Positions 1 through 49,119 are shown, numbered from the stretch's first letter. The stretch: 64,000 nt of DNA from an uncultured archaeon (GCA_938045545.1 CALIBN010000012.1:1-64000); one strand, 5' to 3'. Numbers and translations are program-made. Notes: a model not told the origin generated them from the letters alone.

Positions 1-1
1 T

Positions 2-196
2 ACTGAGCCGGTTTCAATGGACACCCTCTATGATGCTTACTATAGGCCAAATTGGTATGAGGAGATTGAGGTTTCATTAACAACAAGCGTAGAGTATTCG
101 GGCGATATCGTAGGCTTCGTTTCTAAAGTTGTTGAAACTGCAGGAAAACTAGACGAGATGAAGAACAGGTTTGAACAGCTTCTCAGAGGTATGTGA
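2..196 (+). CDS. 3' end of hypothetical protein (truncated by window edge)
   Basis: Open frame from base 2 (TEPVSMDTLY...FEQLLRGM) ending in TGA at 194-196. Confidence 0.5.
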   Translation, partial: TEPVSMDTLYDAYYRPNWYEEIEVSLTTSVEYSGDIVGFVSKVVETAGKLDEMKNRFEQLLRGM

Positions 197-332
197 AAAA
201 TTTGATGACCAACGGAAACGCTGAGAAGATACTAGGAGCACGCATGCGCTTTAACGCACACTTCTCCATTTTTCCTAATCCGACTTAAAAATATCGGGAC
301 CTAGTTCATCAAAATACTTATTTATTCCATAA

Positions 333-716
333 AACGGATTAGGATACCCCGATGATCTTTATTGGAAGTTCATTGTTGCCGCGGAACTCGACACAATTCC
401 ACTTTTCATAGTTCACTGGCTAAACCCTGAACAAGTACCACTAATAAGAGAACTCGGCGGCGAATACATTATCTTTAAAGAAGCACTATACCCTAAAACG
501 TATGAACCGTTGGTTAAAGAATGTAGAGATATGCTCGGAATGCCTATTGTAGCCCTAGATGAAATCGACGATGACTACTTTAATCGCAAGGTAAATGATA
601 TACATCAGAGAACTAGACTCAGCTACCAAGATAAAAGAGACCGAATTAAAGAATTTCTATCTGCAGGAAAAACTGATCCTAGAGTAAGGAGAACCTTAGG
701 AGATAAAACAACATAG
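333..716 (+). pseudogene. gene remnant, hypothetical protein
   Basis: The frame of ORF 510-716 stays open upstream to a TAA at 330-332 with no good start. Codons lean towards A/C endings. Confidence 0.35.
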
Positions 717-968
717 CTGGCAAGACGATAGACGGTAAAAGATCTAGACGGTGCTTAATATTTTTGCCTTTTAAGGCGAAAAAGAACAAAAACAGGAAGA
801 TTATGTCTTAAACAGCCCGGAAAAATACCAATTTAAACCCATTAGCCGCAAGTTTGCTACATATTTAATTTGGTGAACACAGTGTCATAAGATTGTTTTT
901 ATCAGCTCCAGAGCGTACTCCAATTGCTCTTTGTCATTAATCCTAAATTCTTTAGCCACGCTATAGAT

Positions 969-1140
969 CCCGAAGGCTCTGTGCAAAGGAGACGATGCTG
1001 CTGAGCTTGATGTAAAGACGACATGCACCTTCAAACTAGATTTCAGAGATCCTGGAAGCCCGGAGGTCATTAAACTCATCCCATCATGGCTGTCCCAATG
1101 CCTCACAGTGTAATAAGGCGCGCGCTTAAAAGAATCATGA
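969..1140 (+). repeat. degenerate copy of the 3' part of ORF 4323-4817
   Basis: Aligns by eye with ~4625-4793 (gatgctg..gagcttgatgt.aagacgacatg...ccatcatggctg.cccaatgcctcac...ttaaaagaatcatg) and carries a premature stop. Confidence 0.85.
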
Positions 1141-1399
1141 TTGAAGACATGAAGGGATATTGAAGCCTATATAATCGTAGTAATTAAAGTAGATCTGGAA
1201 ACGGGCTTGTTGAATATAGAGAGAACCAAGGAGGTTTCAAAGGATTGAGTGAGGAGGAATTTTTGGAAAAGTTGAAAGAATATCTGACCAACCGTTATAA
1301 TAGAGAGGAGTTTGTAAAGGAACGAGGAACCTGCTGGTTCAGTATTGAGAGGAACCTTCAGCTAAAAATCTCTTGAGGAAACTAGCTTGAAATGGCGAA

Positions 1400-1859
1400 T
1401 AAGCGGTAATGGAACTTACCCCGAAATAGAAGAGGATTCCGAAATGAACCGCTTAACATCGTCAGTTATCCAAGAAGAAAGACTAACCTGATCAACCCTT
1501 AATGCAGCTACATTAGCCTTTTGGCTAGCACTTCTAATACCGCCATTCCAGACATCATCGAACTCTCAACTAAAAGGCATTATCAAAGACACGATTCCTT
1601 GAGTTTTCAAACTTCTTGACCGCGTTCTCCTTCTTATCTTCAGATTTCTTTGCTCTTAAAACTTCCAGTCTTTCTATCTGGTCTCTCAGCCATTCAACCT
1701 CGGCTTCCAACACAGCTACACGTTCTTTATAAAACCTTAATTGCTCTTCGTATTTAACCCTGTATAAAATACGAAAAAGTCATCATCCACGATAACATCT
1801 TTCGCTATTTCAGAAAATCGATCTAATAACTTGAATGAACTATCACCAGCTAATGACAT
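1400..1859 (-). pseudogene. coiled-coil plus TIR/nucleoside-deoxyribosyltransferase-like domain, frameshifted
   Basis: Joined frames read ...LIMPFS*EFDDVWNGGIRSASQKANVAALRVDQVSLSSWITDDVKRFISES, matching the IMPF..FDDVY..I..A......RADE pattern of defence-associated TIR/NDT-like domains. ATG at 1859; left end approximate. Confidence 0.55.
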
Positions 1860-2115
1860 AAAAATAATAAGCACCGAATATAAAGGTTAAGTCCCTTTGA
1901 GTTAATCCGTGGAGGTTAGCGCGCGTTAGAGAGATATTCAGCCCTGGAAGAGCAGAGCTATGCGGCCTAATAGCTTCAGACAGTACTATTTGTAAATATG
2001 AAAGGACGTATGAAGTTTCTTTAAAAACGAGGATAGTGCACTAGCAAGTTAAAATTGATGGTGTTAGCGCATTATTCTTAAATATTACGTAAGTGGTCTT
2101 ATTTTAGAGGGCATT

Positions 2116-3717
2116 ATGAAAGAGGAGCAACTCTCTGAGGAGGAATTACATGTGCTTGATATAATTACTAATCTGGCACCCTTATCGCAATATGAGCTAT
2201 CTGGATTCTGGATAACAAAGGATCGATCTTTCACACCGGATGCGTTAAAGGAGATTATAGATAAACTCCTACTATTAGGATTAATTTTAGTTGAGAAGGT
2301 CGGATATCAAACGAATATTTCGATGACTACCAATATGAGGGAAAAAGCCGTCCAGATACTAACTGAATTTTGGCAGCATAAGAATGTTAAGGATGAGATG
2401 CTCAGGACTATAGCTGAACAGAATTATGTTGGAGTGCTAAGATTCCTTGAACTAATATCATCGTATGCCGATAAGCCACGTGTTACATTCTCGGATTATT
2501 ACTTTGATTCCGAAGCGCATCATCTTTGCTTAGAGTTGTTAAGCAGTCGCATGGTGTTTAAGCACACATCGTCGAGTAGAAAACACTCTTATGAGGACTA
2601 TTATATCCGCAGGATTCCGATTGATGCGCAAGCATTTTTACAGACTTTTCTCTTGAGCAAACTTAATCCAGAAAGACTAGACCTTGAAAGCGATTGGAAA
2701 GTTTTAATAATTCCTCTATTTTCAGAAAAAAATGTAAAAATTTCAGATATCAGGCTTAACTTTCCAGCTTTGACGCAATATGAGATTGATGAGATTTTAG
2801 CCAGATTGGAGAAGAGGGGGATGATGGTAAAAGAGGGAGAGGAAATAAAGTTTCCTAAGGCCACTAAAGATATTATGAAACAATATTTTGCTGCAAAATG
2901 TTGGAGAGCATTTAAAGCTATGTTAATGCAAGATTTAAGAAGAAGAATAAGTGAAAGAAGCTCTAACTTGTTTTTCTTAGGACTAATAAAGAGATTGCTA
3001 ATTTCCGCGAAAGTTCAAAAACCGTTGGAACTGTTTTTTATTATCAGAAGAGATGAAGTGAAGAATGTTAACGAGGATGATCTTAAAGAAGCTGTTAAGC
3101 TTGGTGTTATTTTCCTAACGGAAAATGAAATTTTAATACCTCATGAAGTCCTTACTGATATAGAAGCTATACTCAGTTCTTCAATTTCAGATAAGGCCAT
3201 CATTAGAATACCTGCAGGTGACATATTTGCAGCGGTTAACAATTGGAGAAAAATCTTCAGTGAATGTAGGGACTATATTAAGATTCAGGACGAATGGGTG
3301 AATGAAGAAACTCTCCAAATAGTCCAGAGTTATTCGCCAATTGAAGTGGAGATCATAATTCTAACTGGTATAGAAAAAGCTAGAGACGTAGATATAGAGG
3401 AAATGAAACAAAGATTAGATGCGATAAGAAATTCGGGGAGAAAGATAGAATTGTTCTTCATTGGCTATGAATCGGGGAAAGCGCCTTTTCATTATAGGTA
3501 TATAATTGGTAAAGATGTTTGCTATTCTATCTCTACATCGATAAAGGATGTGGGAAAGTCTAAAGAAGCCGATTTCATACGCATTTCTAAAGAGGAAAAG
3601 GAGGGCCTTATAGAGCCAGCGTTTGACTACTGGATAGGTCTACCAAGGGAGAGGCTTAAGGAGAAGGGTATCAAGAGAATGAGTTTTGATCAATGGCTAG
3701 CATGTGCGCACTACTAG
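2116..3717 (+). CDS. 533 aa protein with C-terminal PLD-like domain, possibly defence-related
   Basis: C-terminal YIKIQDEWV...FHYRYII...YSISTSIKDVGK resembles the HDRFII..Y..G.S.KD.GK PLD-like motif. Low GC. Possible winged-helix segments upstream. Confidence 0.6.
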   Translation: MKEEQLSEEELHVLDIITNLAPLSQYELSGFWITKDRSFTPDALKEIIDKLLLLGLILVEKVGYQTNISMTTNMREKAVQILTEFWQHKNVKDEMLRTIAEQNYVGVLRFLELISSYADKPRVTFSDYYFDSEAHHLCLELLSSRMVFKHTSSSRKHSYEDYYIRRIPIDAQAFLQTFLLSKLNPERLDLESDWKVLIIPLFSEKNVKISDIRLNFPALTQYEIDEILARLEKRGMMVKEGEEIKFPKATKDIMKQYFAAKCWRAFKAMLMQDLRRRISERSSNLFFLGLIKRLLISAKVQKPLELFFIIRRDEVKNVNEDDLKEAVKLGVIFLTENEILIPHEVLTDIEAILSSSISDKAIIRIPAGDIFAAVNNWRKIFSECRDYIKIQDEWVNEETLQIVQSYSPIEVEIIILTGIEKARDVDIEEMKQRLDAIRNSGRKIELFFIGYESGKAPFHYRYIIGKDVCYSISTSIKDVGKSKEADFIRISKEEKEGLIEPAFDYWIGLPRERLKEKGIKRMSFDQWLACAHY

Positions 3718-3931
3718 GGAGATTTTCATCACCTTCGTTAATAATTCTTCCACAGTTTAGGGTCTTGACAATCGTTCTTATACGATTAAGATGGAAATAA
3801 AGGGCATCGCACGCTTAAAAAGCATGCTCCTGATGGTAACCCTCTTTATGTCATAAATCCTCAAAACATTGTTAGAGTGGTCGATGTTCCTAAAAAGCTG
3901 AAAGCTAAACTACCAGAAACTACTTCTAAAC

Positions 3932-4318
3932 TTGTATAGAGAGCGTGCGAAAGGCTACAAGCGAGTGAGTTTTGAAGTATCCTTAGAGGGGATAGAAGCG
4001 GAATTTTCTTCTGAAGAAGGAACATTGAGGATAATGTATGGAAGACGACCTATATTCATAAAGTTCAAGAACACGAAACATATGTACGAGTTCAAAAAGA
4101 CCCTTTCATACCTCGTTTACGAGATTCAACACCGTCCTAGGGAAGTCGTTCAATATAACATAGTTGTAAAGTTTAGCATAGACAAAGATGGAACGATATC
4201 CGTGCAGTGCCCACATTGCGGCGCCTCAGCCCCGCTACGCATTAAGGAGAGCGAAGTAACCTGTAAGTATTGCGGAAAACAGTATATTATTCCCAAGAAA
4301 CTCTTGGACTTAATCTGA
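3932..4318 (+). CDS. hypothetical protein with C-terminal zinc ribbon (possibly 5'-truncated)
   Basis: CPHCGA...CKYCG. Confidence 0.6.
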   Translation: MYRERAKGYKRVSFEVSLEGIEAEFSSEEGTLRIMYGRRPIFIKFKNTKHMYEFKKTLSYLVYEIQHRPREVVQYNIVVKFSIDKDGTISVQCPHCGASAPLRIKESEVTCKYCGKQYIIPKKLLDLI

Positions 4319-4322
4319 ACAC

Positions 4323-4817
4323 GTGCCAAGCCACATAATGTCAGGAGATTTAGGAATCCAAGGAGATGATGTGACAGATAAATCTGAAGGGAAAGAAGTA
4401 ATTAGGAGACCTCTAAGTAAGCCTAAGGAGTTGAGGATGAACTTGCTGAACTACTTTACTGACAGAAGGAACCTTAAAGACATAGGAGCCGTTAGCCCAT
4501 CGCTTGCTGAAACGTTGGAAAGACTGATAAACTATTTCGAGAGAAAGCGAATGGAAGGATTTGTGAACGTGGCTCTTCACCCAATTGGATACAGTGATTC
4601 ACCGCCGCTGATTTGGAGAATGAATCCTGAAGACAATGTGTGCGAGGAAGATGATGCTGTAGAGCTTGATGTTAAGACGACATGTGCTGTGAGACTGGAT
4701 TTCCGAGACCCCGGAAGCCCTGAGGTCGTTAAACTCGTTCCATCATGGCTGCCCCAATGCCTCACGGAGTATAAGGACGTTAAAAGAATCATGCTCGGAG
4801 GGTATAAACAAGACTGA
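4323..4817 (+). CDS. hypothetical protein
   Basis: 164 aa ORF; a diverged paralogous fragment lies at 969-1140. Confidence 0.6.
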   Translation: MPSHIMSGDLGIQGDDVTDKSEGKEVIRRPLSKPKELRMNLLNYFTDRRNLKDIGAVSPSLAETLERLINYFERKRMEGFVNVALHPIGYSDSPPLIWRMNPEDNVCEEDDAVELDVKTTCAVRLDFRDPGSPEVVKLVPSWLPQCLTEYKDVKRIMLGGYKQD

Positions 4818-5044
4818 GCCTCCTTATCTCAGGTATTTCACAGTAGAATGGCCGCCTAATACCGGTAGCCCTGAGAAGCGTATGCTAATCATAAGGTGTA
4901 CATACTGAGAGACTGCTCGAAATTAAAAAGGGGAGATAGCACTGAAGAGAAGCGCGCGTTATTTTTATATTCTTCTGTTAATCAGGAATATGTCTGGCAA
5001 TTGGCTACGTTAGATTTTTAAGCCTACAGGTCTAAACATTCCCA

Positions 5045-5407
5045 TTATGCTTGGGGAACGGATAAAAACGACCCTGGGGTGGGCTGGGGCTTCTGGGACA
5101 GTAAATGGCTCATTCTTCCTGTCATGTCAGCATAAAAATAGGGCTTTCCAAAGTCCAAATCAACATCCCATTCGGGTTTTGATAATAATCGTTTAATGGA
5201 GTATTTAGAAGCCGAGGTCATCACGCTGAAGGTAAATAAGTCGGTGTAAGCATGTTTATATGAACGTGCGACGATAATCCAATCCTTAGACTCCGTCTCC
5301 TTTTTAGCAAACCAGTCTCTGAATGATAAGAATGATAAAACGTCTAGCGTCTCAGGTTGTTCTTCAAAATCACGTACAACACTCGGGATTCTATTATTTT
5401 GACTCAT
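5045..5407 (-). pseudogene. N-terminal fragment of a hypothetical protein
   Basis: ATG start and protein-like first ~95 residues, then an apparent off-frame tail. Bounded by GCGC motifs at 4952 and 5430. Confidence 0.4.
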
Positions 5408-5591
5408 AATTATGCAAAATATGCCGGAACGCGCTTATTAACGTTTATGCTACAGCATTTCTTGATCCTAATTGCCGGCATTCCCTCTTTAAGATGCTAG
5501 ATTGCGTACTACGCAGGCTTCCATTTTATGTCTTCAGTCTTTAAATTTATAAAAAGGAAAAAGCGTTGAATATGGAGGCGATACATAAAGG

Positions 5592-7514
5592 ATGGATACA
5601 GCAGATTACAGTAAGAAGGCCGTGACAAAATCTATAGATATGATTTTCTCTTTCATAAATGTGTTGAAAATTGCTTCTGAAACCCATGAGTTTCGAAGAT
5701 GGCTTAAAAACTATCATAAGATAGAGAATGATGAAGATATCTTTGAGGGGTATAGGTTCTTTTTAATGATTTCTTTGAAGTGTCTTATTGAATCGATAGT
5801 TGATGACAGTGCATTAGAACTGGAAGAAGATGATGTCTTTTTTAGAGCAACAGCTGTTGGAATAGCATTAGAAGATATACCGAATACATGCGAAAAAATA
5901 ATTTTTATAAAAAACATTTGGAACCTAGCTAGGGGGATTCGGAAATCTAAAAACTGGGAGCAGCTTGAAGTCGACTTAAAAATCTTAGAGAAGCTATTTT
6001 TAGTATTTGATAGAATTCATGATAACATAATCCTCACAAGAAATATAAGTAAGGATGATGCCTTTCGAATAATTACAGAAGCTTACATTCATATTTTCTT
6101 AAATGATACGCAACGTATTTATCCACTCGGCAACATTTTATCATCAACCACTAAGAAATACCCGAAAAGATATTTAGATGCAAAAAATGTATTCAAAGGA
6201 TACGTATATTCTCTACAATATTTGTGGTTCATTTTATTAGGAGCAAATAGATTTGAAGAATCCTGCATAAAGAACTTACATAGAGCACCAGAAATCTATT
6301 CTGAAGAAATTGAAGACCAAGAACTTCGTAAGTTTTTTGCGGAATTCGAACAGATTTCCGAAAAGGGTTTAAAGAAAACAGGTAAAGAAAAACTATCACA
6401 AATAAAGGAATGGCTTGCCTTAGATAAATTCTTTTGGAAAATCGAAATGGAAATTATGGCACCAATAGAAAAAGAAATTAGAATGAAACTTACAATTGAT
6501 CCATTGCTATTACTTGAAAAAGTTGATAAATCCATTTATAGGGAACTTCTATCTAGGGATAATATAGAGGATCCTGAGTACCTACACAAAAATGACAAAA
6601 AATCGATCAAAAAACAACTTGACTACAATCTATTATGGTATGAGGTAAATACCCTCGATATCAAAGGAGTGACTATTTTTAGCGGCGTACCTGCCTTCAT
6701 TAACACTTTATTAGGCGCCATAGGATTAAAGGAATACTATGGTATTGACGAAAAAGTCTTAGTTAGAATTTTCAGGCACCCTACACCAGAAAGGGGAAAG
6801 TATGATTATAGTTTTGGTATAATTATAGGAGCCTATAGCGAAATTTCTGACTATTCTGGATGGTTGATATTCTTTAATTGTGCAACAGACTATTCTGGAT
6901 TTGGCGGCTCACTGTACAGGAGGACTGAACACTTCATAAGGAAATTTAGTGAAAAAGGATTAATAGAAGTAAAGGAATTTTTAATCGATAAAAACGTATT
7001 TAGAGAGTACCTAGCTGAAAGAGGTATATCCTCGGTTTATCAATTGAGTTTACCACTAATCAGGAATTATATAAGTAATTTTAAAGGGAGGTTCTTTGAG
7101 TATGTTTTTCATAAATGGATTAATGAAAGCGGCAAATACAATAGTACCAGGTGTGATTTTTATCTAGCTGGAGAAGAGATTGATTGTATTGGTATAACAG
7201 AAAACGAGATCGAAGTTTTTGAGTGTAAACTGGACTTACATATGAACGAAATTGATAAAACTATTGAACAGATAAGAAGGAAAACAGAAGTTATCAGGAA
7301 AGAAATGAAAAAGGATAATGTTAAACCAAATTTAGTGGTTTTTTACGATATACGTCCGAATTTGGAGTTAAAATTTAGAGGAGAAGGAATAAATGTTATA
7401 AAGAACTTCCGAGACAAGGTTAAAGATGACAGGATTTTTAATGGGGTAAGAAAAGAACTTTTAGAACTCTTGGACTACGGATTTATTAAAAACATTAGCA
7501 GATACAAAGCCTGA
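5592..7514 (+). CDS. 640 aa protein with C-terminal PD-(D/E)xK nuclease domain
   Basis: KGRFFEYVF...EEIDCIG...EVFECK motif; very low GC. Confidence 0.7.
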   Translation: MDTADYSKKAVTKSIDMIFSFINVLKIASETHEFRRWLKNYHKIENDEDIFEGYRFFLMISLKCLIESIVDDSALELEEDDVFFRATAVGIALEDIPNTCEKIIFIKNIWNLARGIRKSKNWEQLEVDLKILEKLFLVFDRIHDNIILTRNISKDDAFRIITEAYIHIFLNDTQRIYPLGNILSSTTKKYPKRYLDAKNVFKGYVYSLQYLWFILLGANRFEESCIKNLHRAPEIYSEEIEDQELRKFFAEFEQISEKGLKKTGKEKLSQIKEWLALDKFFWKIEMEIMAPIEKEIRMKLTIDPLLLLEKVDKSIYRELLSRDNIEDPEYLHKNDKKSIKKQLDYNLLWYEVNTLDIKGVTIFSGVPAFINTLLGAIGLKEYYGIDEKVLVRIFRHPTPERGKYDYSFGIIIGAYSEISDYSGWLIFFNCATDYSGFGGSLYRRTEHFIRKFSEKGLIEVKEFLIDKNVFREYLAERGISSVYQLSLPLIRNYISNFKGRFFEYVFHKWINESGKYNSTRCDFYLAGEEIDCIGITENEIEVFECKLDLHMNEIDKTIEQIRRKTEVIRKEMKKDNVKPNLVVFYDIRPNLELKFRGEGINVIKNFRDKVKDDRIFNGVRKELLELLDYGFIKNISRYKA

Positions 7515-7530
7515 GTCCTATTTTTCAAGA

Positions 7531-8106
7531 TTACCTAATCAATAATCCCTTCTGAATCAACTCGTTCATGAGTTTCTCAGCGGCATCATAAACCATCTTC
7601 TCGTTAACAGCACCAGTACATACAAGTTTCCCAGAAGCAAATAAAAGTATAACTACATCTGGATCATGCATTCTATATATAAGGCCCGGGAACTGCTCTG
7701 GTTCATACATTGTTCTTTCTAGTGTGGTGACTGCGTGTTCGAGGTCTATTTTTCCGGGTAGTGTTGCTGATGCTACGATGTTTTGTACGGTGATTTGTGG
7801 TTTTGTTTTTCCTATTATTTTTTTGTTTCTGAGTTCTCTTACGATTTTGTGTACTGCTTCGTGTGCTTGTTTTTCGCTTTTTGCTCCTGTTGACACCATT
7901 TTTCCTGAGCTGAAGATTAGTGTTGCGGTTTTTGGTTTTTCTAGTCTGAATACTAGGCCGGGGAATTGGTCTGGTTTGTATTCTACGTTTTCGAAGTTTC
8001 TGACTATCATGTTTAGGTCTATTCTTTGGTCTAGGATTACTGATGCTACTACGTTTTGGATTTCTACTATTGGTTTTTCCTCGGTTTTTTTGGTTTCCTC
8101 GGACAA
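7531..8106 (-). CDS. tbp: TATA-box binding protein
   Basis: Two TBP repeats (NVVAS...YKPDQFPGLVFR...LIFSSGKMVSTGAK and NIVAS...YEPEQFPGLIYR...LLFASGKLVCTGA); TTG start. Confidence 0.98.
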   Translation of the reverse strand: MSEETKKTEEKPIVEIQNVVASVILDQRIDLNMIVRNFENVEYKPDQFPGLVFRLEKPKTATLIFSSGKMVSTGAKSEKQAHEAVHKIVRELRNKKIIGKTKPQITVQNIVASATLPGKIDLEHAVTTLERTMYEPEQFPGLIYRMHDPDVVILLFASGKLVCTGAVNEKMVYDAAEKLMNELIQKGLLIR

Positions 8107-8490
8107 TGCTCTGTTTATAAAGGGGGTTTTGACTATTTAAATATTGGTTTAGGATGGTTTGTTGGTATGTTTTCGCCTTTTTAACGGGTTTTTCCGGGTT
8201 TTCTCGGGCTTTGTTTTTTCCTCGGCTTCATGGTGGTTGACGTGGGGAAATGCTTGCAAACTTTTTTCAAATTGATTCAGAAGTGTTTTTTGTTAGATTT
8301 TTAATTAATTAGTGTTGTCATTTCGGGTCTTGCGGGGTGGGTGGAATATTTGGGTTTTAAGGGTTTTAGAGTCTTGTTGGAAAGGGTTAGGCTGGGTTTA
8401 AGGATGGTTCTGGCTGGTGTTGTCTCCTGCTTCTGGGGCTTAGGCGTGAGGTCACGTTTTTAAGCCTTTATTTTTTCTGGAATTAAGAGT

Positions 8491-8892
8491 ATGGATGGAT
8501 ATGGGGAAATAACTGTTAGAGGCAGGGTTTCTAGTGGGGAAGGTAAGGGGGGCTTTTTCGTCAGCAGACCTTGGGTAATGAGACAGATTGTGGAGAAGCT
8601 TGGTTTCGAACCATATCCTGGGACGCTCAACATCAGACTGCCGCCGGAATACGTTTTCGCCAGAAGGAGGCTGGATAGTCATCGTGGAGTTAAAATAGTG
8701 CCTAATGAGGGCTTCTATCCCGGTAAGTGTTTTAAAGCAATAATAGCTGGAAGAATCGACGGGGCCATTGTGATTCCTGAAACTCCCCTTTATCCTGAAG
8801 ACTTGCTGGAAGTAATAGCTTCCTTCAATCTGCGTAAGGAACTGAAAACCAAGGATGGGGACGAGGTAGAGATTACGATACTACTTGAATAA
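8491..8892 (+). CDS. ribK: archaeal CTP-dependent riboflavin kinase
   Basis: GRVSSGEGKG, LGFEPYPGTLN, EVIASFNLRKEL..KDGD. Confidence 0.92.
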   Translation: MDGYGEITVRGRVSSGEGKGGFFVSRPWVMRQIVEKLGFEPYPGTLNIRLPPEYVFARRRLDSHRGVKIVPNEGFYPGKCFKAIIAGRIDGAIVIPETPLYPEDLLEVIASFNLRKELKTKDGDEVEITILLE

Positions 8893-9261
8893 AACGATTA
8901 CTGTTTGAAATATCTAGAGTAATTCTAAGCAATATGACGTTTATTACAGCTGTGGCTATGAAGATATGGCTGCTAGAACAACTGTAATGAATGCTTTTCA
9001 ACCATCCGAGTCTAGAAATGTTTTATTAATGCCAACCAAATTATGAAAGGAGTCGAAGTCTCAATCAAACCATGTAGGAAATATCCTAAAGCTACATCTA
9101 GAATATCCTTCCAAGGGCTGTCTCTTCGGTTTTAACTATTCCACAGTAGCGCGCCCTGGATCGTTGTTCTTGGAGTAATTCCGTGAATTCTAGCCAATTT
9201 GGATGTGTACATGTAAAATTTTAAATACTTCCATTAGCTTCTATTTTATTGGTGGAATGGT

Positions 9262-9471
9262 TTGCCGTTGGTTCAGGTTTCTGTTTGGGCTGGCATAAGC
9301 CTAGAAAGTAAACGGAGGATCGTTCAAGGAATTACTAAAGTGTTTGAGGATATAGGGGTCCCCAAAGAAGCTGTAGAAATAATCATCTACGAAGCGCCTA
9401 AAACGAATTGGGCAACAGGCGGACAACTTCATTCAGAATCAGAGAAGCTTGCAAAGACAAAAATACCATAA
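9262..9471 (+). CDS. 4-oxalocrotonate tautomerase family protein
   Basis: N-terminal catalytic Pro, 69 aa, KRRIVQGIT and NWATGG. Confidence 0.9.
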   Translation: MPLVQVSVWAGISLESKRRIVQGITKVFEDIGVPKEAVEIIIYEAPKTNWATGGQLHSESEKLAKTKIP

Positions 9472-9497
9472 CTACGCATAAAAACACGGTGCGCGCT

Positions 9498-9532
9498 ATT
9501 TCTACTATTGGTTTTTCTGCTTCTGCTTGCAT
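9498..9532 (-). pseudogene. orphan 5' fragment of a tbp allele (MQAEAEKPIVE)
   Basis: 20 bp identical to tbp 8060-8079; 34/35 identical to 11199-11233. Confidence 0.8.
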
Positions 9533-9567
9533 TTTGAAATAAGCTTATATACAGCCATTCTGTACAA

Positions 9568-9807
9568 ATGTGTAAACGATGGTTTTCTGAAGCGTTAAGC
9601 ATCAGGATAAGGAGGGATGTTAAGAGGAGGATGAGGGAGTTGAGGGATGTGGATTGGAGGAGGGAGATAGAGGGTTTCATTGAGATGAAGATAAGGGAGA
9701 GGGAGTTGTTGAAGGCTCTCGGTATGATCGATGCGGCCCTCTCCGGGGTTCAGGCCTCGAAGGAGGCTGCTTGGCAGACTGTCAGGGAGTTCAGGGAGAA
9801 GAGGTAG
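9568..9807 (+). CDS. RHH/VapB-type antitoxin
   Basis: SEALSIRIRRDVKRRM...VDWRREI; lies upstream of a PIN gene. Confidence 0.75.
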   Translation: MCKRWFSEALSIRIRRDVKRRMRELRDVDWRREIEGFIEMKIRERELLKALGMIDAALSGVQASKEAAWQTVREFREKR

Positions 9808-10238
9808 GGGTCTTGCAGGTTCTTGATTCGAGCATTTTCGCCAGCATAGTGGTGAAAGACGAGTATTATGATGAGGCTGTTAGTTTTATTAAGAAACACC
9901 TGAGGCGGGAGAATGCTACGCTTGAGCTGGCCTTCATAGAGACTGCTAATGTTTTGTGGAAGCATGTCTCCGTGTTTAAGAGGATGCCTGAAGACAGTTT
10001 TGAAACGTTGAAGAGCAGTATAAAGCCTTTGATGAACAACGCGGCGCAGTTTTACAGCAGCCTGGATGTTTTAGAGGATGCCCTGGATAATTCGGTTAAA
10101 TACGGGTTCTCCGTGTATGCTTCCCTGTATGCTACGCTGGCCTTGAGTTAAAAAATGTAGTTAATGAGCTTCGATGAAAGGCTGAAGAATATGCTTGTTG
10201 AAAGGGGCTTGGAAAGCGTTTTAGCGTCTGACGCGTGA
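9804..10238 (+). pseudogene. VapC PIN toxin, inactivated
   Basis: VLDSS..E..N motif present. The conserved YD is YA. In-frame TAA at 10149-10151 and a nearby TAG precede the LMSFDERL tail. Confidence 0.75.
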
Positions 10239-10465
10239 AAGACACGTTGATGGGCAGCTTCGAATTCAAAACAGTGAAAATAGCCTGTTGGTAAAATCTT
10301 CCTAAATCCTCTTTTTTTCTCCGTAAAAACCCGTATTAATTATTATTTTTGTTACCTAATAAACGGAGAATTTATATCCTCTTTATAAATACCCCGCTTG
10401 AATATTTAAAATATTGGTTTTCTAGACTTTATGGTTTAGGGGTGTTTTATTAGGGTTGAGAGGAA

Positions 10466-10505
10466 TTAGTGCGCACTAAGAAAATTTTTAAACACATGTG
10501 TGCAC
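10466..10505 (+). promoter_or_regulatory. palindromes around the TATA box of vapBC
   Basis: Perfect TTAGTGCGCACTAA at 10466-10479, TTTTTAAA box, then ACACATGTGT and GTGCAC just before ATG 10515. Confidence 0.55.
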
Positions 10506-10514
10506 TTATAAATT

Positions 10515-10730
10515 ATGGTTAAGACTATCACTATAAACGACGAGGCCTACAGGGCTTTGGCCGAGCTTAAGGGAGAGGGTGAGAGCTTTAGCGAGGTTAT
10601 AATCAGGATTCTTAAGGGGAGGAGGGTTAATCTGGGGGATTTCTACGGAGTGTTTCGCGATAATGCGGATCTCTGGCTGAGGATTGAGAGGGAGATTCTG
10701 GAGGGTAGGAGGAGGGCTTCTTTGCGATGA
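10515..10730 (+). CDS. vapB: VapB antitoxin (DUF217-like)
   Basis: KTITINDEAYRALAELKGEGESFSEVIIR. Confidence 0.9.
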   Translation: MVKTITINDEAYRALAELKGEGESFSEVIIRILKGRRVNLGDFYGVFRDNADLWLRIEREILEGRRRASLR

Positions 10731-11134
10731 GGCTGCTGGATACTTCGGCTATAATTAGTGTTCTGAGGGGGGATGCTGAGGCTAAGAGTATTCTGGGGAA
10801 GCCTGCTGAGGAGGGGCTTTGCACGACGACGATAACGCGTTTCGAGCTTTTCTCCAGAATATACCATAGGGGGCTTCTAAGGGAGGGGAGGGTGGTTAGG
10901 AGGCTGGTTAAGGGCCTGGTTCTCTTGCCGTTTGACGAGGAGTCTTCGGAGAAGGCTGCTGAAATCATGGGGTTCTTGCTTAGGGCGGGCAAGGCTGTCA
11001 ACGTTATTGATGTTTTGATCGCCGGCATCGCTGTGGCTAACGGCGTTGAAGAGATAGTGACGAGGGACAGGGATTTCAAGACTATTGAAGATATTTACGG
11101 CCATATGAAAGTAGTTTTGCTTGCTGGAGACTAA
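10727..11134 (+). CDS. vapC: VapC PIN-domain toxin
   Basis: LLDTS, E, DVLIAGIA, TRDRDF; ATGA overlap with the antitoxin. Confidence 0.92.
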   Translation: MRLLDTSAIISVLRGDAEAKSILGKPAEEGLCTTTITRFELFSRIYHRGLLREGRVVRRLVKGLVLLPFDEESSEKAAEIMGFLLRAGKAVNVIDVLIAGIAVANGVEEIVTRDRDFKTIEDIYGHMKVVLLAGD

Positions 11135-11160
11135 TTCTTCTTTGAAGAGAATGCGTACGC

Positions 11161-11233
11161 TATTTTTGGCTAGGATAACTGATGCTACTACGTTTAGGAT
11201 TTCTACTATTGGTTTTTCCGCTTCTGCTTGCAT
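11161..11233 (-). pseudogene. orphan 5' fragment of a tbp allele (MQAEAEKPIVEILNVVASVIL)
   Basis: 11170-11219 matches tbp 8031-8080 at 48/50 nt. Confidence 0.85.
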
Positions 11234-11308
11234 GCCAAGCGCGAATCGAAAGGTTCGTGATCACCGGCACGGGTAAAAATTTATATAAAAGATAAGGGTT
11301 ATTCACAT

Positions 11309-13609
11309 ATGAGAAAAGTAGTCTTATTCTACTTTCTTCTCTTTACTATCGGCTTCACTGGTTGCGTTTTCCTGTATTCTTCTCCAGGGCCTGGTCTCTG
11401 CACGGCCAGCCTCCAGCCAGTGGCGGATACATATGCTGCGCAAAATAATCCGAATGTGAACTACGGGTCTGAAACGTCGCTCATAGTTTCTCCGGGCTTA
11501 AAGGCTGTTTGCAGGACGTTGGTCAGGTTTGACTTGGCGCAAATACCGCCTGGCTCGAAGCTTGCCGGTGCTCAGCTTAAGCTCTACGTGGCCCGAACCG
11601 GGTATGCGGCTGGCAGGGGGACGTATGAATGCTACTTGCTGGATAGGGACTGGGCTGAAAGAACTGTGACTTGGAATAGTCAACCCGGCTCTGTCTCCGG
11701 GTTCGCCGTCTATTCAACAGTCCCAGCTGCCGGCAGCTGGATGACGTGGAACGTTGCATCATCAGTCAGCCAAATCCTAGCGGGAACCAGGTCCAACTTC
11801 GGATGGGGCGTAAGAGACCAGGCTGAGGATATGCGTGCTGAAATTGTTCCTTCAACCGTCTTCCCCTCCAAGGAAAACCCGACTAACAAGCCTATTCTTG
11901 AAATCTCGTTCTACCCGCCTAAGCTGGCAATATCCGGGCCTGCCTCAGGCTTTGTCGAAACATGGGTTAAGCTAACGGTTGAAAGAAGGGATGCTGACAA
12001 CCAGCCAATAACCCGGGGTGATCTCAGGGTTCAGCTTTCGTCCAGCTCAGCCTCAGCAAGGTTTGCGCTGTCTGAAGGAGGCTCGCAGATAACAGAGCTG
12101 ACCATTCCTAACGGGGCTTCGAAGAAAGACTTCTACTATTACGACACTAAGGTTGGTTCAGCCACGATAACCGCTGACACTAACCAGTATAGGGCTGATT
12201 ACTATGAGGAGGGCCGCTTCAGCATCACTCTTGGGGCTAGGGATGTTGAGGGGCCTAAGGTAACCATAAGGGCTATTCCGGAGAAAGTAAAAGACAAGGA
12301 GAGCGTGAGGGTGGTCGTCGATGCCTCGGACCCGAGCGGAATAAAAAAAGTCATGGTCATACAGCGGGGGATCGCGTTGGGCGGAAGCCCATGGGAGCAG
12401 CCCCTATTCATGGAGGCTTACACAGACCCTCTACAGGCAAGCTTCCATAGGGAGGTTGAGTCCGGACCGTTCCCCGGCATGCGGATGGTAGAGTTCGAAG
12501 CTGAGGCAATGGACAAGTATGGAAACATAGGGAGGAGTTCAACGAGCGTCACTATAATTCATCCCCCTCCGAAGAGGACCTGTGGATGCAGGATAAGCTA
12601 TTCGTTGAAAACGAAGGACGTTAAGGTTTGGACCCAGTGGGACTCAATCGCAACCGGCGATGTGGTCGGCGATGGAAGAGACGAGGTTATCGTGGCTCAG
12701 GATGACGAGGGTGGCAGACTGTTTGTCTACACGTGGAACGCTGAGGAAAATGCTCTCGAGCCGATGAAATTCTCGGGCAAAGCATTCACTAAGGTCAGAT
12801 TCACGCATTACGACAGGATGGCGGTTGGTAACGTGATGGGCGACGAGAAGGACGAGATCCTTATCGCAATAGACGAAGATGGAAAAGCGGGAATAATAGA
12901 CATCTACCAGGTTAAGCAGGCTGCTGACGGCTGTGAGCTCACCCTTGTTTCAAGCATAGACTTAGACGCGTTTGGATGTAAATTCACGCATTTCGACGCC
13001 CTCCTCGTGGGCAACGTTTTCAACGACGATAAGCAGGATGAAATAATTCTAGTGAGGGATGATGATGACAAGCTATTCGTCTTCGACCCTACTGCAACAG
13101 GCTCTTTCACCATGCATACTTTTACAGTGCCCGCGGGCTTCGACGAGTTCAGGTATACCGGGGAAACTGATAATGAGAATGATGATGACAACGGTCATGA
13201 TGAGATAGCTGTCGCCAACCTCTTTGGAGACGATGCTGAGGAGATAGTTTATGCGCCCAACCATGAGGATAAGCTGTACGTTTTCTCCTTCAAGCAATCG
13301 GGAGGAGCATGGGTGATGGAAGTGGCGTACAGGCTCCCTGTCGAATTCACGAAATACGATGCCATGAGCGTTGGCGACGTGCTTGGAGACCCTAGGCCTG
13401 AAATACTTTTCTTCAGGGATGATGACAGGGTCGTGCTGATATACGATGTCTTCCTTGGGCCGATAAAGCTTCAATACATCTTCTACTCCAAGTATGACGG
13501 CGTCGCAACCGGGGATGTAGTAGGACTGGGTAAGGGGCAGATACTGGTTGCTACGGACGACGAGAACGATATTCGCCTAGCATACTCGGAGGAACTCTGG
13601 GAGGGTTGA
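11309..13609 (+). CDS. secreted protein: DNRLRE/CBM96-like domain, Ig-like domains, six FG-GAP-like Ca-binding repeats
   Basis: Signal peptide; ADTY...NYG...LVRFDL...VTWNSQP; repeats such as IATGDVVGDGRDEVIVAQDD. Confidence 0.8.
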   Translation: MRKVVLFYFLLFTIGFTGCVFLYSSPGPGLCTASLQPVADTYAAQNNPNVNYGSETSLIVSPGLKAVCRTLVRFDLAQIPPGSKLAGAQLKLYVARTGYAAGRGTYECYLLDRDWAERTVTWNSQPGSVSGFAVYSTVPAAGSWMTWNVASSVSQILAGTRSNFGWGVRDQAEDMRAEIVPSTVFPSKENPTNKPILEISFYPPKLAISGPASGFVETWVKLTVERRDADNQPITRGDLRVQLSSSSASARFALSEGGSQITELTIPNGASKKDFYYYDTKVGSATITADTNQYRADYYEEGRFSITLGARDVEGPKVTIRAIPEKVKDKESVRVVVDASDPSGIKKVMVIQRGIALGGSPWEQPLFMEAYTDPLQASFHREVESGPFPGMRMVEFEAEAMDKYGNIGRSSTSVTIIHPPPKRTCGCRISYSLKTKDVKVWTQWDSIATGDVVGDGRDEVIVAQDDEGGRLFVYTWNAEENALEPMKFSGKAFTKVRFTHYDRMAVGNVMGDEKDEILIAIDEDGKAGIIDIYQVKQAADGCELTLVSSIDLDAFGCKFTHFDALLVGNVFNDDKQDEIILVRDDDDKLFVFDPTATGSFTMHTFTVPAGFDEFRYTGETDNENDDDNGHDEIAVANLFGDDAEEIVYAPNHEDKLYVFSFKQSGGAWVMEVAYRLPVEFTKYDAMSVGDVLGDPRPEILFFRDDDRVVLIYDVFLGPIKLQYIFYSKYDGVATGDVVGLGKGQILVATDDENDIRLAYSEELWEG

Positions 13610-13612
13610 AAA

Positions 13613-15910
13613 ATGGAGAGTAGAAAGATATTCTCAATCATTATCCTGCTGTTGATACTGACTGCAGGCACACCCGGCTCTTCACCGGGACGAATAAGAG
13701 TATTAGGCAGCCCGGCTGGAGGTCCTGATCTGAAGGTTGACAGTGCAGTCTTCTTTCCACAACCCGTCGCCGGGCTAAGAACAAGGATGATTGTAACCGT
13801 AAGCAACAAGGGTAGTCCTGTTAAACAGCTGTTCTGGGTGTCAGTAAAATGGGGCGGATGCCAGCTTGTCAACGGTACGTATGGGCTTGACGGTGGGGCA
13901 ACAGCCAGTATTCTGTTCTATCCCCTGTTTCTACAGGCGGGGAAATACTCGCTTGAAGTGACTGTGGATCCCTACGGGGAGGTTATGGAGACGGATGAAA
14001 CGAATAACGTTCTAGTGCTTTGGCAGGAGGTTATACTTCCTAAAGCCGGGGGCGTGAAAGCTCCTCCTACTGAACTGGATTTTGAAAGCGAGGAAGCAGT
14101 ATGGGGTTATATTGGTAATCTGCCGAGTGGAGAACCATCTATGCATGCACTGCCTGACTACGTTTTAATGGGAAGGCTCGACCCCAATGATCCGAACTCG
14201 CCCTTCGAAGCGCAGGGAGAAACGAGTGCCTGCGGCACCACATCGCTGGCTGGTATACTGAGATACTTGTCCAAGAAGGATTCCAGCGTTTACAATCACA
14301 ATATCATAGATACGTGGGTCAGGGGGGGAGGTGAGATTGATGTATACAGTGAAGGTTTCTCTCTCGCAGACTACGCTAGAGGTAAAGGCTTCGAGGCGAG
14401 AGTATACGTGGATGGAACCTTCGAAGACGTAAAACGGTTTATCGACATGGGGATACCTGTGGAGATGTGTATAACGACTGACGGAAGCCACGATGAGATG
14501 AACGTTCTCAATGGCCACTGGATCGTTGCAGTATGCTACTGGGAGGATATGAACTACGGCACCATGATCGGCTACTATAATCCTTGGGGCCACTTGAGCG
14601 CGATTCCCCAGAGAAGGTTCGAACTATACTGGACAGAGCAAAACCTTCTGGGGATAACGCTGTGGAACAGGTTTTACGTCGCGATATGCAACAAACCAGC
14701 TCCCCCAGATATGCCTCCCAGCAACGCGGGTGCTCTTGAGAAATATCATGGTGCACTCGTAGAGGGTGTCAGCATTTTTTTAAACGAATTAGGCTCAAGC
14801 ATCAGGATGATAAAGTCTGGTGATGCAGGAGAAAAGATAAAGGGCTTAGGGCTCCTAATCGGGACCGTGATTTTTGGCTCCATGCTTCTTATTCCCGTCT
14901 CGCTGACGCTTGTTGCCGAATGGGTTTGGGAAGGAATAAAGGCGGCTGCTGAATTGATTTGGGAAGGGATAAAGGCTTTAGGCTGCAAGCTGTTCGGCTG
15001 GGGTTGCAAGAGTAAGAAAGAGTATTTCTACTATTTCTACTCGTCAAGTCCCTCTTGCGAATGCTCCAGTCTTTTAAACGACATGGTTAGGGTCGAGGCA
15101 GTCGGATACATATTCACCTCCCAGGTTGGAGACGCTGTTCCAGTCTACGAGTATGCTGAGGTGGATGAGCAGACCCGCGAGGTGATAAGATACTTCGTGT
15201 CGACAGACCCTAATTTGCCGGAGACTGGAGCCCCTGGTGTCAGAAGGTTCCTCTACGGGAGGCTCGGTTATCTTAATAAATCTGAGATCCAGGGGGTTCC
15301 AAACGAGAAGCTGGTTGATTATCTTAAAACGTATGGAATTGACTACGACGCATCTGTCTCAAACCTGTGGGTTTCCCAGTACTATCTGGAGGGTTCAAAA
15401 ATACTGTGGATGTTCAATATGACCAGTGAAACGTCTTGGCGCGCTTTCCTCAGCCCAGATGAAGCCGGAGGCACCAAGACTTTTCCGTACGTGGCTGTTG
15501 ACTATAAGGGGGAGAGCAGGGGGTATCACTTCACCAGGGACTACGTTGTCGGCTACGTGCATTACAACCATCTCCGGGGAACGGCGCCTCTCTACAGGTT
15601 TTACGACCCTGATAAGGAAGAGTTCTACCTCACTACTGATTTAAACGATGAGCCGAAGGAGCTCCGCCCTGTTAGGGAAATGGTTTTCTCCGGCGTGGTC
15701 GGGTATGTTTTTCTCGAGCAGAAGCCTGGTACTGTACCGCTTTACAAGTATCATGCTCATGAAAAGGGGGCGCACTACCTTTTCACCACGAAGGAGATTG
15801 AGTCTGACAAGTTCACCCGGCTCGGCGTAATCGGCTACGTGTACGAGTACGAGGAGGATTGCACCGTACCGCTCTGGCTCTTCTGCTTCAGACAGGTGAA
15901 GGAGGAGTGA
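13613..15910 (+). CDS. secreted CARDB plus C39-like cysteine peptidase plus DUF5648-like repeat protein
   Basis: Signal peptide; PDLKV...VDPYGEVMETDETNN; QGETSACG / GHW / YYNPWG catalytic pattern; PLYRFY..FYLTT..GVVGYV repeats. Confidence 0.75.
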   Translation: MESRKIFSIIILLLILTAGTPGSSPGRIRVLGSPAGGPDLKVDSAVFFPQPVAGLRTRMIVTVSNKGSPVKQLFWVSVKWGGCQLVNGTYGLDGGATASILFYPLFLQAGKYSLEVTVDPYGEVMETDETNNVLVLWQEVILPKAGGVKAPPTELDFESEEAVWGYIGNLPSGEPSMHALPDYVLMGRLDPNDPNSPFEAQGETSACGTTSLAGILRYLSKKDSSVYNHNIIDTWVRGGGEIDVYSEGFSLADYARGKGFEARVYVDGTFEDVKRFIDMGIPVEMCITTDGSHDEMNVLNGHWIVAVCYWEDMNYGTMIGYYNPWGHLSAIPQRRFELYWTEQNLLGITLWNRFYVAICNKPAPPDMPPSNAGALEKYHGALVEGVSIFLNELGSSIRMIKSGDAGEKIKGLGLLIGTVIFGSMLLIPVSLTLVAEWVWEGIKAAAELIWEGIKALGCKLFGWGCKSKKEYFYYFYSSSPSCECSSLLNDMVRVEAVGYIFTSQVGDAVPVYEYAEVDEQTREVIRYFVSTDPNLPETGAPGVRRFLYGRLGYLNKSEIQGVPNEKLVDYLKTYGIDYDASVSNLWVSQYYLEGSKILWMFNMTSETSWRAFLSPDEAGGTKTFPYVAVDYKGESRGYHFTRDYVVGYVHYNHLRGTAPLYRFYDPDKEEFYLTTDLNDEPKELRPVREMVFSGVVGYVFLEQKPGTVPLYKYHAHEKGAHYLFTTKEIESDKFTRLGVIGYVYEYEEDCTVPLWLFCFRQVKEE

Positions 15911-15928
15911 TTCCGGAGGCTGGGGAAA

Positions 15929-16369
15929 ATGGTTCGTGAGAAGTTTGCAAAGGGAACACTGGGTTTCGGAATCCTGGTTACGCTTCTATTCATAGTGGTT
16001 TCCAACATGGTGGCGATATTCCTGAGTCTCTACCTGTTGGTCTTAATCATGCCGATCCTAGCGGGGCTCGTAATAGGATTCTACGCGAAGGGGAACAGTT
16101 TGGCCAAGGGGAAAGCTGGCTTCAAGGGGGTTTTCGCCGCCACGCTCATACTACTCCTCTTGTCCGCGCCGGTCATCATAATGGCTTTTTCAGAGATAGT
16201 AGCGTTATGGACCGCCATTCCGTTGATCCTACTAGCGGTTTCTCCAATCGTGATGGGGCTTCTGGGCTTCGTCGGAGGCTTGATGAGCGGGATGTTAATA
16301 AAGCTGGCTAAGCGGCCTAAATACGCGGAGGAGCTTCCACCACCTCCACCTCAGGCTCCATCAACATAG
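15929..16369 (+). CDS. small multi-pass membrane protein with poly-Pro tail
   Basis: About 4 hydrophobic segments; PPPPPQAP end; co-oriented with the two genes upstream. Confidence 0.75.
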   Translation: MVREKFAKGTLGFGILVTLLFIVVSNMVAIFLSLYLLVLIMPILAGLVIGFYAKGNSLAKGKAGFKGVFAATLILLLLSAPVIIMAFSEIVALWTAIPLILLAVSPIVMGLLGFVGGLMSGMLIKLAKRPKYAEELPPPPPQAPST

Positions 16370-16551
16370 CTAACTAAACAATCTGGGGAAACTAGGCTTT
16401 AGAATTAGGGTTTGCGCGCCGGGTTTTACCCTCTTTTCCTAAGTTTTATTGGTTTTCTTCTCTATCGGCTTTTTCTCTAGGTTTTTTAAGCTGATTGCTT
16501 CTATCCTTCATCTTTTTCCGCTTTTCGTTCAGCTTCCGACTTGCAGCTTAG

Positions 16552-17004
16552 TTAAGGTGTTAGCTGGTCTGGCGTTATGATTGTGTCTTTCAAACCCTTC
16601 ACACGTATGAATTCCCTTAGCTCTTTATCTAATGTGAGCAGTTTCAGGTTGAAATGGGCTGAGCTTGCGTAGAGTAGGTTGTCAACCATATCTCTGTGGC
16701 CTAGTGAGTAAAGCCTTAGGGCCTCGTTGAAGACTTGAGGATCCTCCTTGACTTCCCCGTACCTGCCGCTCTCCATGATGCTTCTCAGCCCCGTGTTGAA
16801 AGCATCGTCTACGACTCCGCCTGTTAGCTTGGCTACCACCCAGAGTGCCTCTAATATGCTGAAGCGTGAGTAGAGTGTTTCTACACCAGTTTCCGCAAGC
16901 TTCTTTAAGCCTTCAACAGCCTCTCTTCCAACATCGATCCCGAGGGAGGGGAGTATGAAGGATGTATCAAGCAGGATTCTCAGTCTGTTTTGCCTGCTCC
17001 TCAA
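16552..17004 (-). CDS. vapC: VapC PIN-domain toxin
   Basis: ILLDTS, SILE, DMVDNLLYAS, LTLD. Confidence 0.88.
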   Translation of the reverse strand: MRSRQNRLRILLDTSFILPSLGIDVGREAVEGLKKLAETGVETLYSRFSILEALWVVAKLTGGVVDDAFNTGLRSIMESGRYGEVKEDPQVFNEALRLYSLGHRDMVDNLLYASSAHFNLKLLTLDKELREFIRVKGLKDTIITPDQLTP

Positions 17005-48919: not shown

Positions 48920-49013
48920 GGGCCCGTGGCCAAGCCAGGATAAAGGCGTCGAGAGGATTGCTCGCGCAGGCCTCCGGAGCCGGAGAACCTGGGTTCAAAT
49001 CCCAGCGGGCCCG
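48920..49013 (+). tRNA. tRNA-Arg(CCG) with an ~18 nt non-canonical intron in the 5' anticodon stem
   Basis: GGGCCCG/CGGGCCC acceptor; CTGGG-TTCAAAT-CCCAG T-arm; removing ~48951-48968 gives TCGGC-CT CCG GA-GCCGG. Confidence 0.88.
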
Positions 49014-49119
49014 CTGCCCCAGGTTTGACGCGTTAAAAGGGTACGAACATGCTCGGGGAAAGTTTGTGTTTTTGTCCTGGAAAAAAGGTTTCCAGACGAT
49101 GCTGGTTAACGGCTTAGCT

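Follow-up and report, generated by a model that had tools for sequence, protein, structure and literature searches.

The window analysed here is the first 64 kb (64,000 nucleotides) of contig C12 (CALIBN010000012.1) in the 2.03-Mb, 51-contig genome (G000) of an uncultured hot-spring archaeon from a Brockarchaeota genus. It carries tbp, which encodes an essential transcription factor, with variable DNA on both sides of the gene. The tbp locus is a recombination hotspot, foreign DNA landing on both sides of an essential gene. Upstream of the gene lie three cargo blocks, two of them toxin–antitoxin (TA) cassettes, with one relic of a tbp 5′ end beside each. At the 3′ side, direct repeats of the final ~156 nt of tbp space TA and restriction-modification cassettes. 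For comparison we used 16 further genomes of the same genus and some from outside it (the other G-numbers), as well as three public sequencing runs (X1–X3), of which X3 comes from another study.

The resident tbp gene (7531–8106, minus strand) encodes 191 aa, starts with TTG, has the N-terminus MSEETKKTEEKPIVE and matches PF00352 at E 9e-61; the full-length products of genus relatives are 91–95% identical to it in amino acids. It is preceded by a promoter typical of the genus (8107–8150, minus strand), with the boxes CCAATATTTAAATA and TTTATAAA. The boxes were located by a regular-expression scan, their spacing being 13 nt in some known copies, and both are also present 5′ of tbp in G002, G004, G006, G008, G009, G010 and G016. 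We considered whether the low GC content of tbp marks a foreign origin and ruled this out, because the tbp genes of relatives are 87–93% identical and equally AT-rich. In two genomes of the same taxonomic order (G018, contig C145, and G020, contig C163), the full-length tbp has two in-frame TAG codons each.

When the region is read in the direction of tbp transcription, the promoter of an operon for secreted proteins is followed by a 39-nt filler, tbp fragment 2, the palindrome GCGTACGC, the cassette TA2 (vapC-vapB), the palindrome GTGCGCAC, a promoter relic (relic 3), the palindrome ACGCGT, the cassette TA1, tbp fragment 1, the palindrome GCGCGC, a tautomerase gene, a riboflavin kinase gene, the native promoter and tbp. 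Fragments 1 and 2 share the orientation of tbp, and each opens an open reading frame (ORF) starting MQAEAEKPIVEI, where the resident gene reads MSEETKKTEEKPIVEI. Fragment 1 (9498–9532, minus strand) comprises 35 nt, corresponding to tbp codons 1–11 of the MQAEAEKPIVE type, and has no promoter. Fragment 2 (11161–11233, minus strand) comprises 73 nt, corresponding to codons 1–24 of the same type, and has no native promoter. Positions 11164–11219 are 93% identical to tbp positions 8025–8080 over 56 nt, the fragment then running on for 15 nt to the ATG at 11233; over 35 nt, its part 11199–11233 is 97% identical to fragment 1 (34/35). These two orphan starts, with a common N-terminus unlike that of the resident gene and with a GC palindrome at each truncated end, had been described in a first-pass annotation of the window, and they are present as described. 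A 20-nt core common to tbp and both fragments occurs exactly three times in the 2.03-Mb genome, always at this locus and on the same strand, and the reversed core, used as a control, does not occur in the genome at all.

The joints of the fragments have a constant feature. The GCGCGC palindrome (9491–9496) lies between the tautomerase tail and fragment 1, whose homology to tbp stops at 9498, precisely where the 20-nt core shared with the resident gene ends. The palindrome GCGTACGC (11153–11160) lies between the vapC tail and fragment 2, and the homology of TA2 to its relatives stops at 11151. Relic 3 (~10378–10440, minus strand), identified by alignment to native promoters and by motif scan, is a promoter-only copy of the tbp upstream region: both TATA-like boxes (TTTATAAA and TATTTAAAATATTGG) are present in native spacing and orientation, without a coding part, and the relic is bracketed by ACGCGT (10231–10236) and GTGCGCAC (10469–10476). 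Breakpoints with respect to relatives fall at 9497, 10232, 10481 and 11151, each within 12 nt of a palindrome (at 9491, 10231, 10469 and 11153). As a scan of the region located 14 such palindromes in 9 kb, this coincidence is unlikely to be due to chance (rough estimate below 1e-3). The filler (11234–11272), which contains GCGCG, occupies the gap between fragment 2 and the secreted-protein operon; homology to the operon promoters of G016 and G007 begins at ~11273. At fragment 1, the cargo is reached at the GCGCGC joint, and the ATG side overlaps TA1 by 2–4 nt. The ATG of this fragment adjoins the left end of TA1, and in G010 the same TA1 end adjoins the native tbp upstream region. An Rfam scan of positions 7000–12000 gave a single match, at chance level.

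Both TA cassettes have counterparts beside tbp in G010. TA1 (9533–10232, plus strand) encodes a VapB-family antitoxin (9568–9807; NF050799 at 57.4 bits, below the cutoff of 60 bits) and its partner (9771–10151), and is 88% identical to positions 353–1050 of G010 contig C9. TA2 (10481–11151, plus strand) encodes VapB (10515–10730; PF02697) and VapC/PIN (10727–11134; PF01850), and is 92% identical to positions 1334–2010 of the same contig. As a whole, the TA1–TA2 stretch (9534–11151) is 88–92% identical to positions 353–2010 of G010 C9, which lie 350 nt upstream of an intact tbp with a native promoter. The same TA1/TA2 spacer contains in G010 a partial promoter relic with GCGCGC tracts on its borders. 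The third block consists of a CTP-dependent riboflavin kinase gene (8491–8892, plus strand; PF01982 at E 1e-34, NF040694) and a gene of the 4-oxalocrotonate tautomerase family (9262–9471, plus strand; PF01361, NF001966). The riboflavin kinase gene shows just 67–70% nucleotide identity to its genus homologues, which sit on other contigs and not near tbp. Beyond fragment 2, the secreted-protein operon (11309–16369, plus strand; CBM96/FG-GAP and CARDB/peptidase C39-like domains according to Pfam) has homologues in G016 (C1), G007 (C18) and G012 (C49), none of them adjoining tbp, and a GCGCGC sequence is located at 16414, close to its right boundary. Neither the riboflavin kinase–tautomerase block nor this operon lies beside tbp in any relative examined.

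We take the arrangement upstream of tbp to be real. In run X1, an independently built 24.5-kb contig spans 9330–11400 and beyond, with both fragments in its interior, and a second contig corresponds to 7757–9351. In run X3, a contig from one other organism joins the ATG of fragment 2 to the secreted-protein operon; fragment 2 is therefore older than this strain, and fragment 1 with its cargo is seen only here. Another X3 contig joins the tbp core directly to vapB without vapC, followed by 1144 other letters, part of TA1 and a sequence resembling the far-upstream region of tbp. That DNA of different strains was fused at the repeated tbp pieces during assembly or binning is extremely improbable. 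It is true that the assemblies of relatives often break at tbp, and that the two X1 contigs meet only at 9330–9351 (22 nt), inside the tautomerase gene where variant contigs accumulate, so that no single X1 contig spans this interval. Against a false join, the genome contains no second near-identical tautomerase gene that could have caused it, the 24.5-kb contig holds both fragments, and the junction of fragment 2 with the operon appears in a run from another study. Within the tautomerase gene, X1 yields several short variant contigs for positions 9263–9413, at a depth far above that of the flanks, likely owing to close homologues in other community members.

We then compared the 5′ region of tbp among relatives. 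The N-terminal tail is variable in the genus, and the promoter and the 20-nt core are conserved. The N-termini read MQTQAEKPPEKP in G008 and G002, MQTQAEKPGEKP in G010, MQAEAEKPGEKP in G006, MQAETAKPGEKP in G009 and MQTTAEKPEKP in G016, and G004 has a TTG start followed by MSEAVEKSEKP. A metagenome search with the 20-nt core gave 72 matches, of which eight were tbp; all eight were full 5′ ends with a native promoter, seven of the MQ type and one with a TTG start (MSEAVEKHPEKP). The MQ..AEKP start is thus the commoner type (6/8 genus genomes, 7/8 metagenome contigs) and the resident TTG MSE.. start the rarer one, which speaks against the earlier view of the fragments as pieces of a foreign allele. 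Fragments 1 and 2 correspond to the common type minus 12 nt between two GAAAAACC repeats. The first-pass annotation had recommended searching for a full tbp with their start: a full-length gene with the exact MQAEAEKPIVE start was found in none of 17 genus genomes and at none of the eight metagenome tbp loci, the nearest starts being those of G006 (MQAEAEKPGEKPIVE) and G009, each 12 nt longer. The interval between tbp and the genes for a CoA-binding protein and a P-type ATPase is TA-rich and different in each relative examined, so the flanks of tbp are not stable across relatives. A swap of N-terminus and promoter had also been suggested. Its first half agrees with the data, as the resident N-terminus is unlike the relics, which fits displacement by an incoming one; its second half finds no support, since the intact gene keeps the genus-typical promoter and it is the fragments that lack it.

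The far more heavily used site is the 3′ end of tbp, which the first-pass annotation had overlooked. The exchangeable segment (tbp nt 421–576; 7531–7686, minus strand) is the unit repeated in downstream arrays. A protein search of G000 revealed five extra tbp pieces, all from the last ~50 residues; four are stacked on contig C8 (at C8 positions 6966–7088, 8061–8207, 9501–9655 and 16499–16636) and the fifth is on C16. Matches to tbp were found in 13 of the 16 other genus genomes, with 11 in G003, eight each in G004 and G011 and seven in G006; outside the genus, one to three matches per genome are the rule. The left boundary of the repeat is uniform: among 32 fragments on 10 contigs, 21 start at tbp nt 419–424 and 28 at nt 419–439. 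Nearly all end at nt 555–576 of 576. In runs X1 and X2, the contigs branch at position 7686 of the window, which is tbp nt 421. Fragments are spaced by ~1–3 kb, with some larger gaps, and the genes between them, on either strand, include PIN/VapB, ParE/RelB, UPF0175/DUF3368, DUF4258/DUF2283, MazE/PIN and DUF5678/aspartyl protease cassettes, as well as AbiE, a DpnII-type restriction-modification system and Dnd-like genes. No palindromes are present at the array borders. A degenerate 23-nt core of the repeat was found at 30 places in a collection of species representatives, all in archaeal metagenome-assembled genome records of this kind, and in no viral contig.

Shared cassettes occur in differing order between genomes. 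In G006, a single fragment separates the aspartyl protease gene from MazE-PIN; the G000 counterpart reads aspartyl protease, fragment, UPF0175/DUF3368, fragment, DUF4258/DUF2283, fragment, MazE-PIN. On its left side the G006 fragment matches the first of the three G000 copies, on its right side the third, and therefore two cassettes were gained or lost by recombination within the repeat. The first and third G000 copies are identical across their central ~85 nt. Two further such triples have switch points that are central, yet patchy, scattered and mosaic, which agrees better with homologous exchange than with one crossover at a fixed point. Codon differences among 24 ungapped fragments (seven gapped ones being left out) are 416 synonymous against 63 non-synonymous, with 92/53/435 at the three codon positions; the fragments therefore diverged while they were working gene ends. 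Their encoded 3′ tips are near-identical peptides (84–98% amino-acid identity). In addition, when full-length tbp genes are compared in pairs, divergence in the terminal 156 nt exceeds that of the remaining gene in 6/6 cases (e.g., 85.3% vs. 93.4% identity), as expected if the tail is periodically replaced.

No member of the integrase families searched (E cutoff 1e-4; serine recombinases were not searched genome-wide) was found among 121 array ORFs or among 20 window ORFs. The tyrosine recombinase family PF00589 has no match on fragment-bearing contigs, its matches in the genus lying on other contigs only. G003 and G004 (completeness 93% and 91%) have no PF00589 match anywhere, though both have arrays.

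Several observations connect the arrays to tbp indirectly. In G004, the full tbp is followed by a cassette that comes after fragments in G003 and G011, window positions 4611–4827 are 88% identical to the proximal end of the G006 array contig, and the start of C8 matches DNA that in G004 lies 2 kb downstream of tbp. In both G000 and G006, the array has the same DJ-1/PfpI gene at its far end. The starts of C12 and C8 have no common 25-mer, and only their orientation and the cassettes they share suggest that they are adjacent. In G002, the 11 kb downstream of tbp contain no array. In the window, the DNA downstream of tbp (1–7530) is variable and of low GC content (32–43%), with large ORFs without a Pfam family; this DNA probably represents the first block of cassettes in the 3′ array, truncated where the contig begins. 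Within it, region 2116–4318 contains a 533-aa ORF weakly similar to the candidate defence protein PDC-S05 and a 128-aa ORF that ends in a TnpB/Cas12f-like zinc ribbon, possibly a remnant.

Taken together, these data lead us to a reading to which we assign a probability of about 0.5: the orphan starts would be the remains of earlier 5′ ends of the lineage's own tbp, left by serial end-displacement anchored on the conserved tbp coding sequence. A block of DNA ending in a tbp 5′ region would come in from a related cell and recombine homologously within the conserved coding sequence, in the last event within the 20-nt core where fragment 1 stops; a crossover in this core would produce a fragment ending exactly there. 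The far end of the block would be joined illegitimately, the joint being marked by a short GC palindrome, and the old gene start would end up upstream, no longer functional, with the new cargo between it and the gene. The present order would be the result of three rounds, namely fragment 2 with TA2, relic 3 with TA1 and fragment 1 with the riboflavin kinase–tautomerase block, the last one bringing the present TTG N-terminus. The relics, their joints, the arrays, the gain or loss within the repeat and the absence of integrase genes are observed, and from them we infer the order of events and homologous recombination as the engine. G010 seems to preserve the arrangement that preceded the last insertion, because TA1–TA2 is syntenic there beside an intact tbp with a native promoter. 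Later deletions would have taken the promoters from two of the stubs, possibly because strong antisense transcription of the cargo from such a promoter was selected against. On the 3′ side, an integrase-free cycle would operate, in which recombination between repeats, or between a repeat and the gene tail, inserts or removes units made of a cassette plus a repeat; the fixed left boundary of the repeat would be inherited from one founding event. The 5′ joints differ in kind from those of the 3′ side by their unequal end points, their palindromes and the filler.

Serial end-displacement has to face several observations that weigh against it. Fragments 1 and 2 lack the native promoter, their homology beginning at the ATG or within 3 nt of it; simple displacement keeps the promoter with the stub, and therefore two extra deletion or replacement events are needed. 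With 34/35 identical positions and a common start that is 12 nt shorter than that of any full-length tbp found, the two fragments may be copies of one another and not the products of separate events. Neither run X1 nor run X2 contains excised or alternative joints at the 5′ fragments. Extra tbp 5′ copies are present in 0/16 other genus genomes and on 0/8 tbp-bearing metagenome contigs. The initial proposal that the tbp 5′ end is a repeated target is not supported by these counts; the unstable flanks and the one relic per cargo block at this locus are what speaks for it. As assemblies break at tbp, its physical linkage to the arrays is indirect, and the constant left boundary of the 3′ repeat would equally fit a site-specific enzyme.

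This last point introduces site-specific integration, in which the att sites of cassettes copy the first or last coding stretch of tbp and a recombinase acting in trans (tyrosine, serine or other) performs the insertion. Direct repeats in tandem arrays, the uniform left boundary seen in 21/32 fragments and the 35-nt direct repeats that bracket TA1–TA2 would all be accounted for, and among archaeal elements there are precedents for integration into 3′-distal parts of protein genes, for tandem arrays and for the pTN3-like use of the 5′ half of tRNA genes (PMC6563490 and PMC8371274). We nevertheless regard it as unlikely. Integrases are absent from the 121 array ORFs, G003 and G004 have arrays without any PF00589 match, the switch points within the repeat are scattered and the 3′ core is on no viral contig. 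At the 5′ side, the fragments end unequally (+35 and +73) at palindromic joints and not at a common att boundary, for which reason the likeness to tRNA-targeting integrative elements drawn in the first-pass annotation is not upheld either; moreover, integration into the 5′ coding part would leave the promoter with a distal stub, and it is the intact gene that has the native promoter.

The palindromes invite a different explanation, according to which the 5′ fragments are nearby pieces of tbp captured or duplicated as filler, as by-products of a GC-palindrome-associated DNA joining process that does not target tbp. The proximity of palindromes to four of the breakpoints, the GCGCGC tracts around the G010 spacer relic, the near identity of fragments 1 and 2 with their same short allele, the 39-nt filler adjoining fragment 2 and the restriction of 5′ stacking to this lineage are what such a process would leave. 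It does not readily explain why all three relics derive from a single 150-nt region of one gene and share its orientation, with one per cargo block, nor why the copied allele is not that of the resident gene; in addition, the 3′ arrays show that tbp ends do recombine, without palindromes at the borders. We consider this explanation doubtful. A bolder reading, in our opinion equally doubtful, would have the coding stretches at both ends of tbp act as universal recombination sites for a system, specific to this genus, that exchanges cassettes without an integrase and in which an unrecognised enzyme, possibly one that leaves palindromes, moves TA and defence cassettes, each move rewriting the tbp ends, the N-terminal tail at the 5′ side included.

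Arrays of this kind are known from other systems. C-terminal displacement arrays of Rhs were reportedly described by Jackson in 2009. At those loci as at tbp, a conserved main gene is followed by orphaned 3′ copies in the same orientation, each with its own cargo, in arrays that grow by horizontal transfer through a proposed mechanism without an integrase; the coding constraint on the tbp fragments indicates that they were once working gene ends. For effector-immunity loci of Rhs and of the type VI secretion system, Kirchberger 2017 (PMC5361080) describes orphaned 3′ parts and cargo behind a conserved gene, and proposes a homologous anchor combined with an illegitimate joint. Unlike these loci, tbp encodes an essential transcription factor and not a toxin, in an archaeon; its 3′ tips are near-identical and only a short N-terminal tail varies, so that the payload is the cassette and not the tip, its repeat has a fixed boundary, and a mirror-image stack is present at its 5′ end. 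With the archaeal integrative elements cited above, tbp arrays share the gene-end direct repeats that flank the insert, the tandem arrays and the rebuilding of the target after insertion. They differ from them by the lack of an integrase, by units of ~1–3 kb, by scattered switch points and by a repeat of 156 nt, as compared to a median att length of 45 bp (PMC6563490).

Integrons, which include chromosomal arrays rich in TA cassettes and are reported in Archaea in a preprint (10.1101/2022.02.06.479319), also stack small promoterless or single-operon cassettes, many of them TA, beside a fixed point and with one orientation of the recombination site. The tbp arrays differ in having no intI or other integrase beside tbp or within them, in spacers that are tbp coding fragments and probably not attC hairpins, and in genes on either strand. 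Homology-facilitated illegitimate recombination, described in transformable bacteria (PMC5361080 and PMC3240628), anchors one end by homology and the other not, which may fit the 5′ joints of tbp; unlike its products, those joints carry a constant kind of sequence, the GC palindrome. We know of no report of this process from archaea. Literature searches on tbp as an integration site and on Brockarchaeota gave no title or abstract that describes tbp-anchored arrays.

As a rule, hotspots of insertion are tRNA genes, and integrases serve them. The gene that anchors variable DNA on its two sides here is a protein gene, single-copy, essential and highly conserved; it has no linked integrase, and some genomes show no integrase at all. 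What is new is the presence of end-displacement or hotspot arrays at both ends of an essential archaeal transcription factor gene, without an integrase, the kind of array itself being known. If turnover needs only homology at gene ends, it would offer a simple route to TA and defence islands for archaea that lack classical mobile-element enzymes, and turnover driven by homology would also explain the assembly breaks at tbp in this group. The 5′ stack indicates that the N-terminal tail of TBP can be exchanged in this way, and through its palindromic joints the locus is connected with a DNA-joining process of the lineage that may be undescribed. Taken alone, the 5′ stack is a lineage-specific curiosity; the genus-wide 3′ arrays, together with the palindromic joints, merit a population-genomic study.

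Some further features of these regions were recorded. Directly before several 3′ fragments there is a block of ~360 nt (G000 C8 positions 9141–9500, with counterparts in G003, G004, G006 and G011) that is 83–90% identical between genomes and ends in ..CCTTATTCT at the repeat boundary; no convincing ORF was found in it, and it may belong to the mobile unit. Compared with G006, the G000 array has an extra ~4.9 kb (C8 positions 10722–15650) of normal GC content, containing a gene for a 936-aa UPF0182 membrane protein, so the cargo of the arrays is not all TA or defence. On C16, an isolated tbp 3′ fragment (16414–16514; tbp nt 480–572, 81% identity) lies ~50 nt past the gene for ribosomal protein L2, at the transition from the L3-L4-L23-L2 operon to ORFs without a known family. 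The non-coding stretch 8933–9108, in the gap between the riboflavin kinase and tautomerase genes, has no Rfam match and is found with 73–83% identity in at least seven genus genomes on unrelated contigs, being conserved more widely than the adjacent genes. Finally, at 48920–49014 ARAGORN calls a 95-nt tRNA-Asn with the anticodon ATT, whose length and anticodon suggest a misread intron-containing tRNA.

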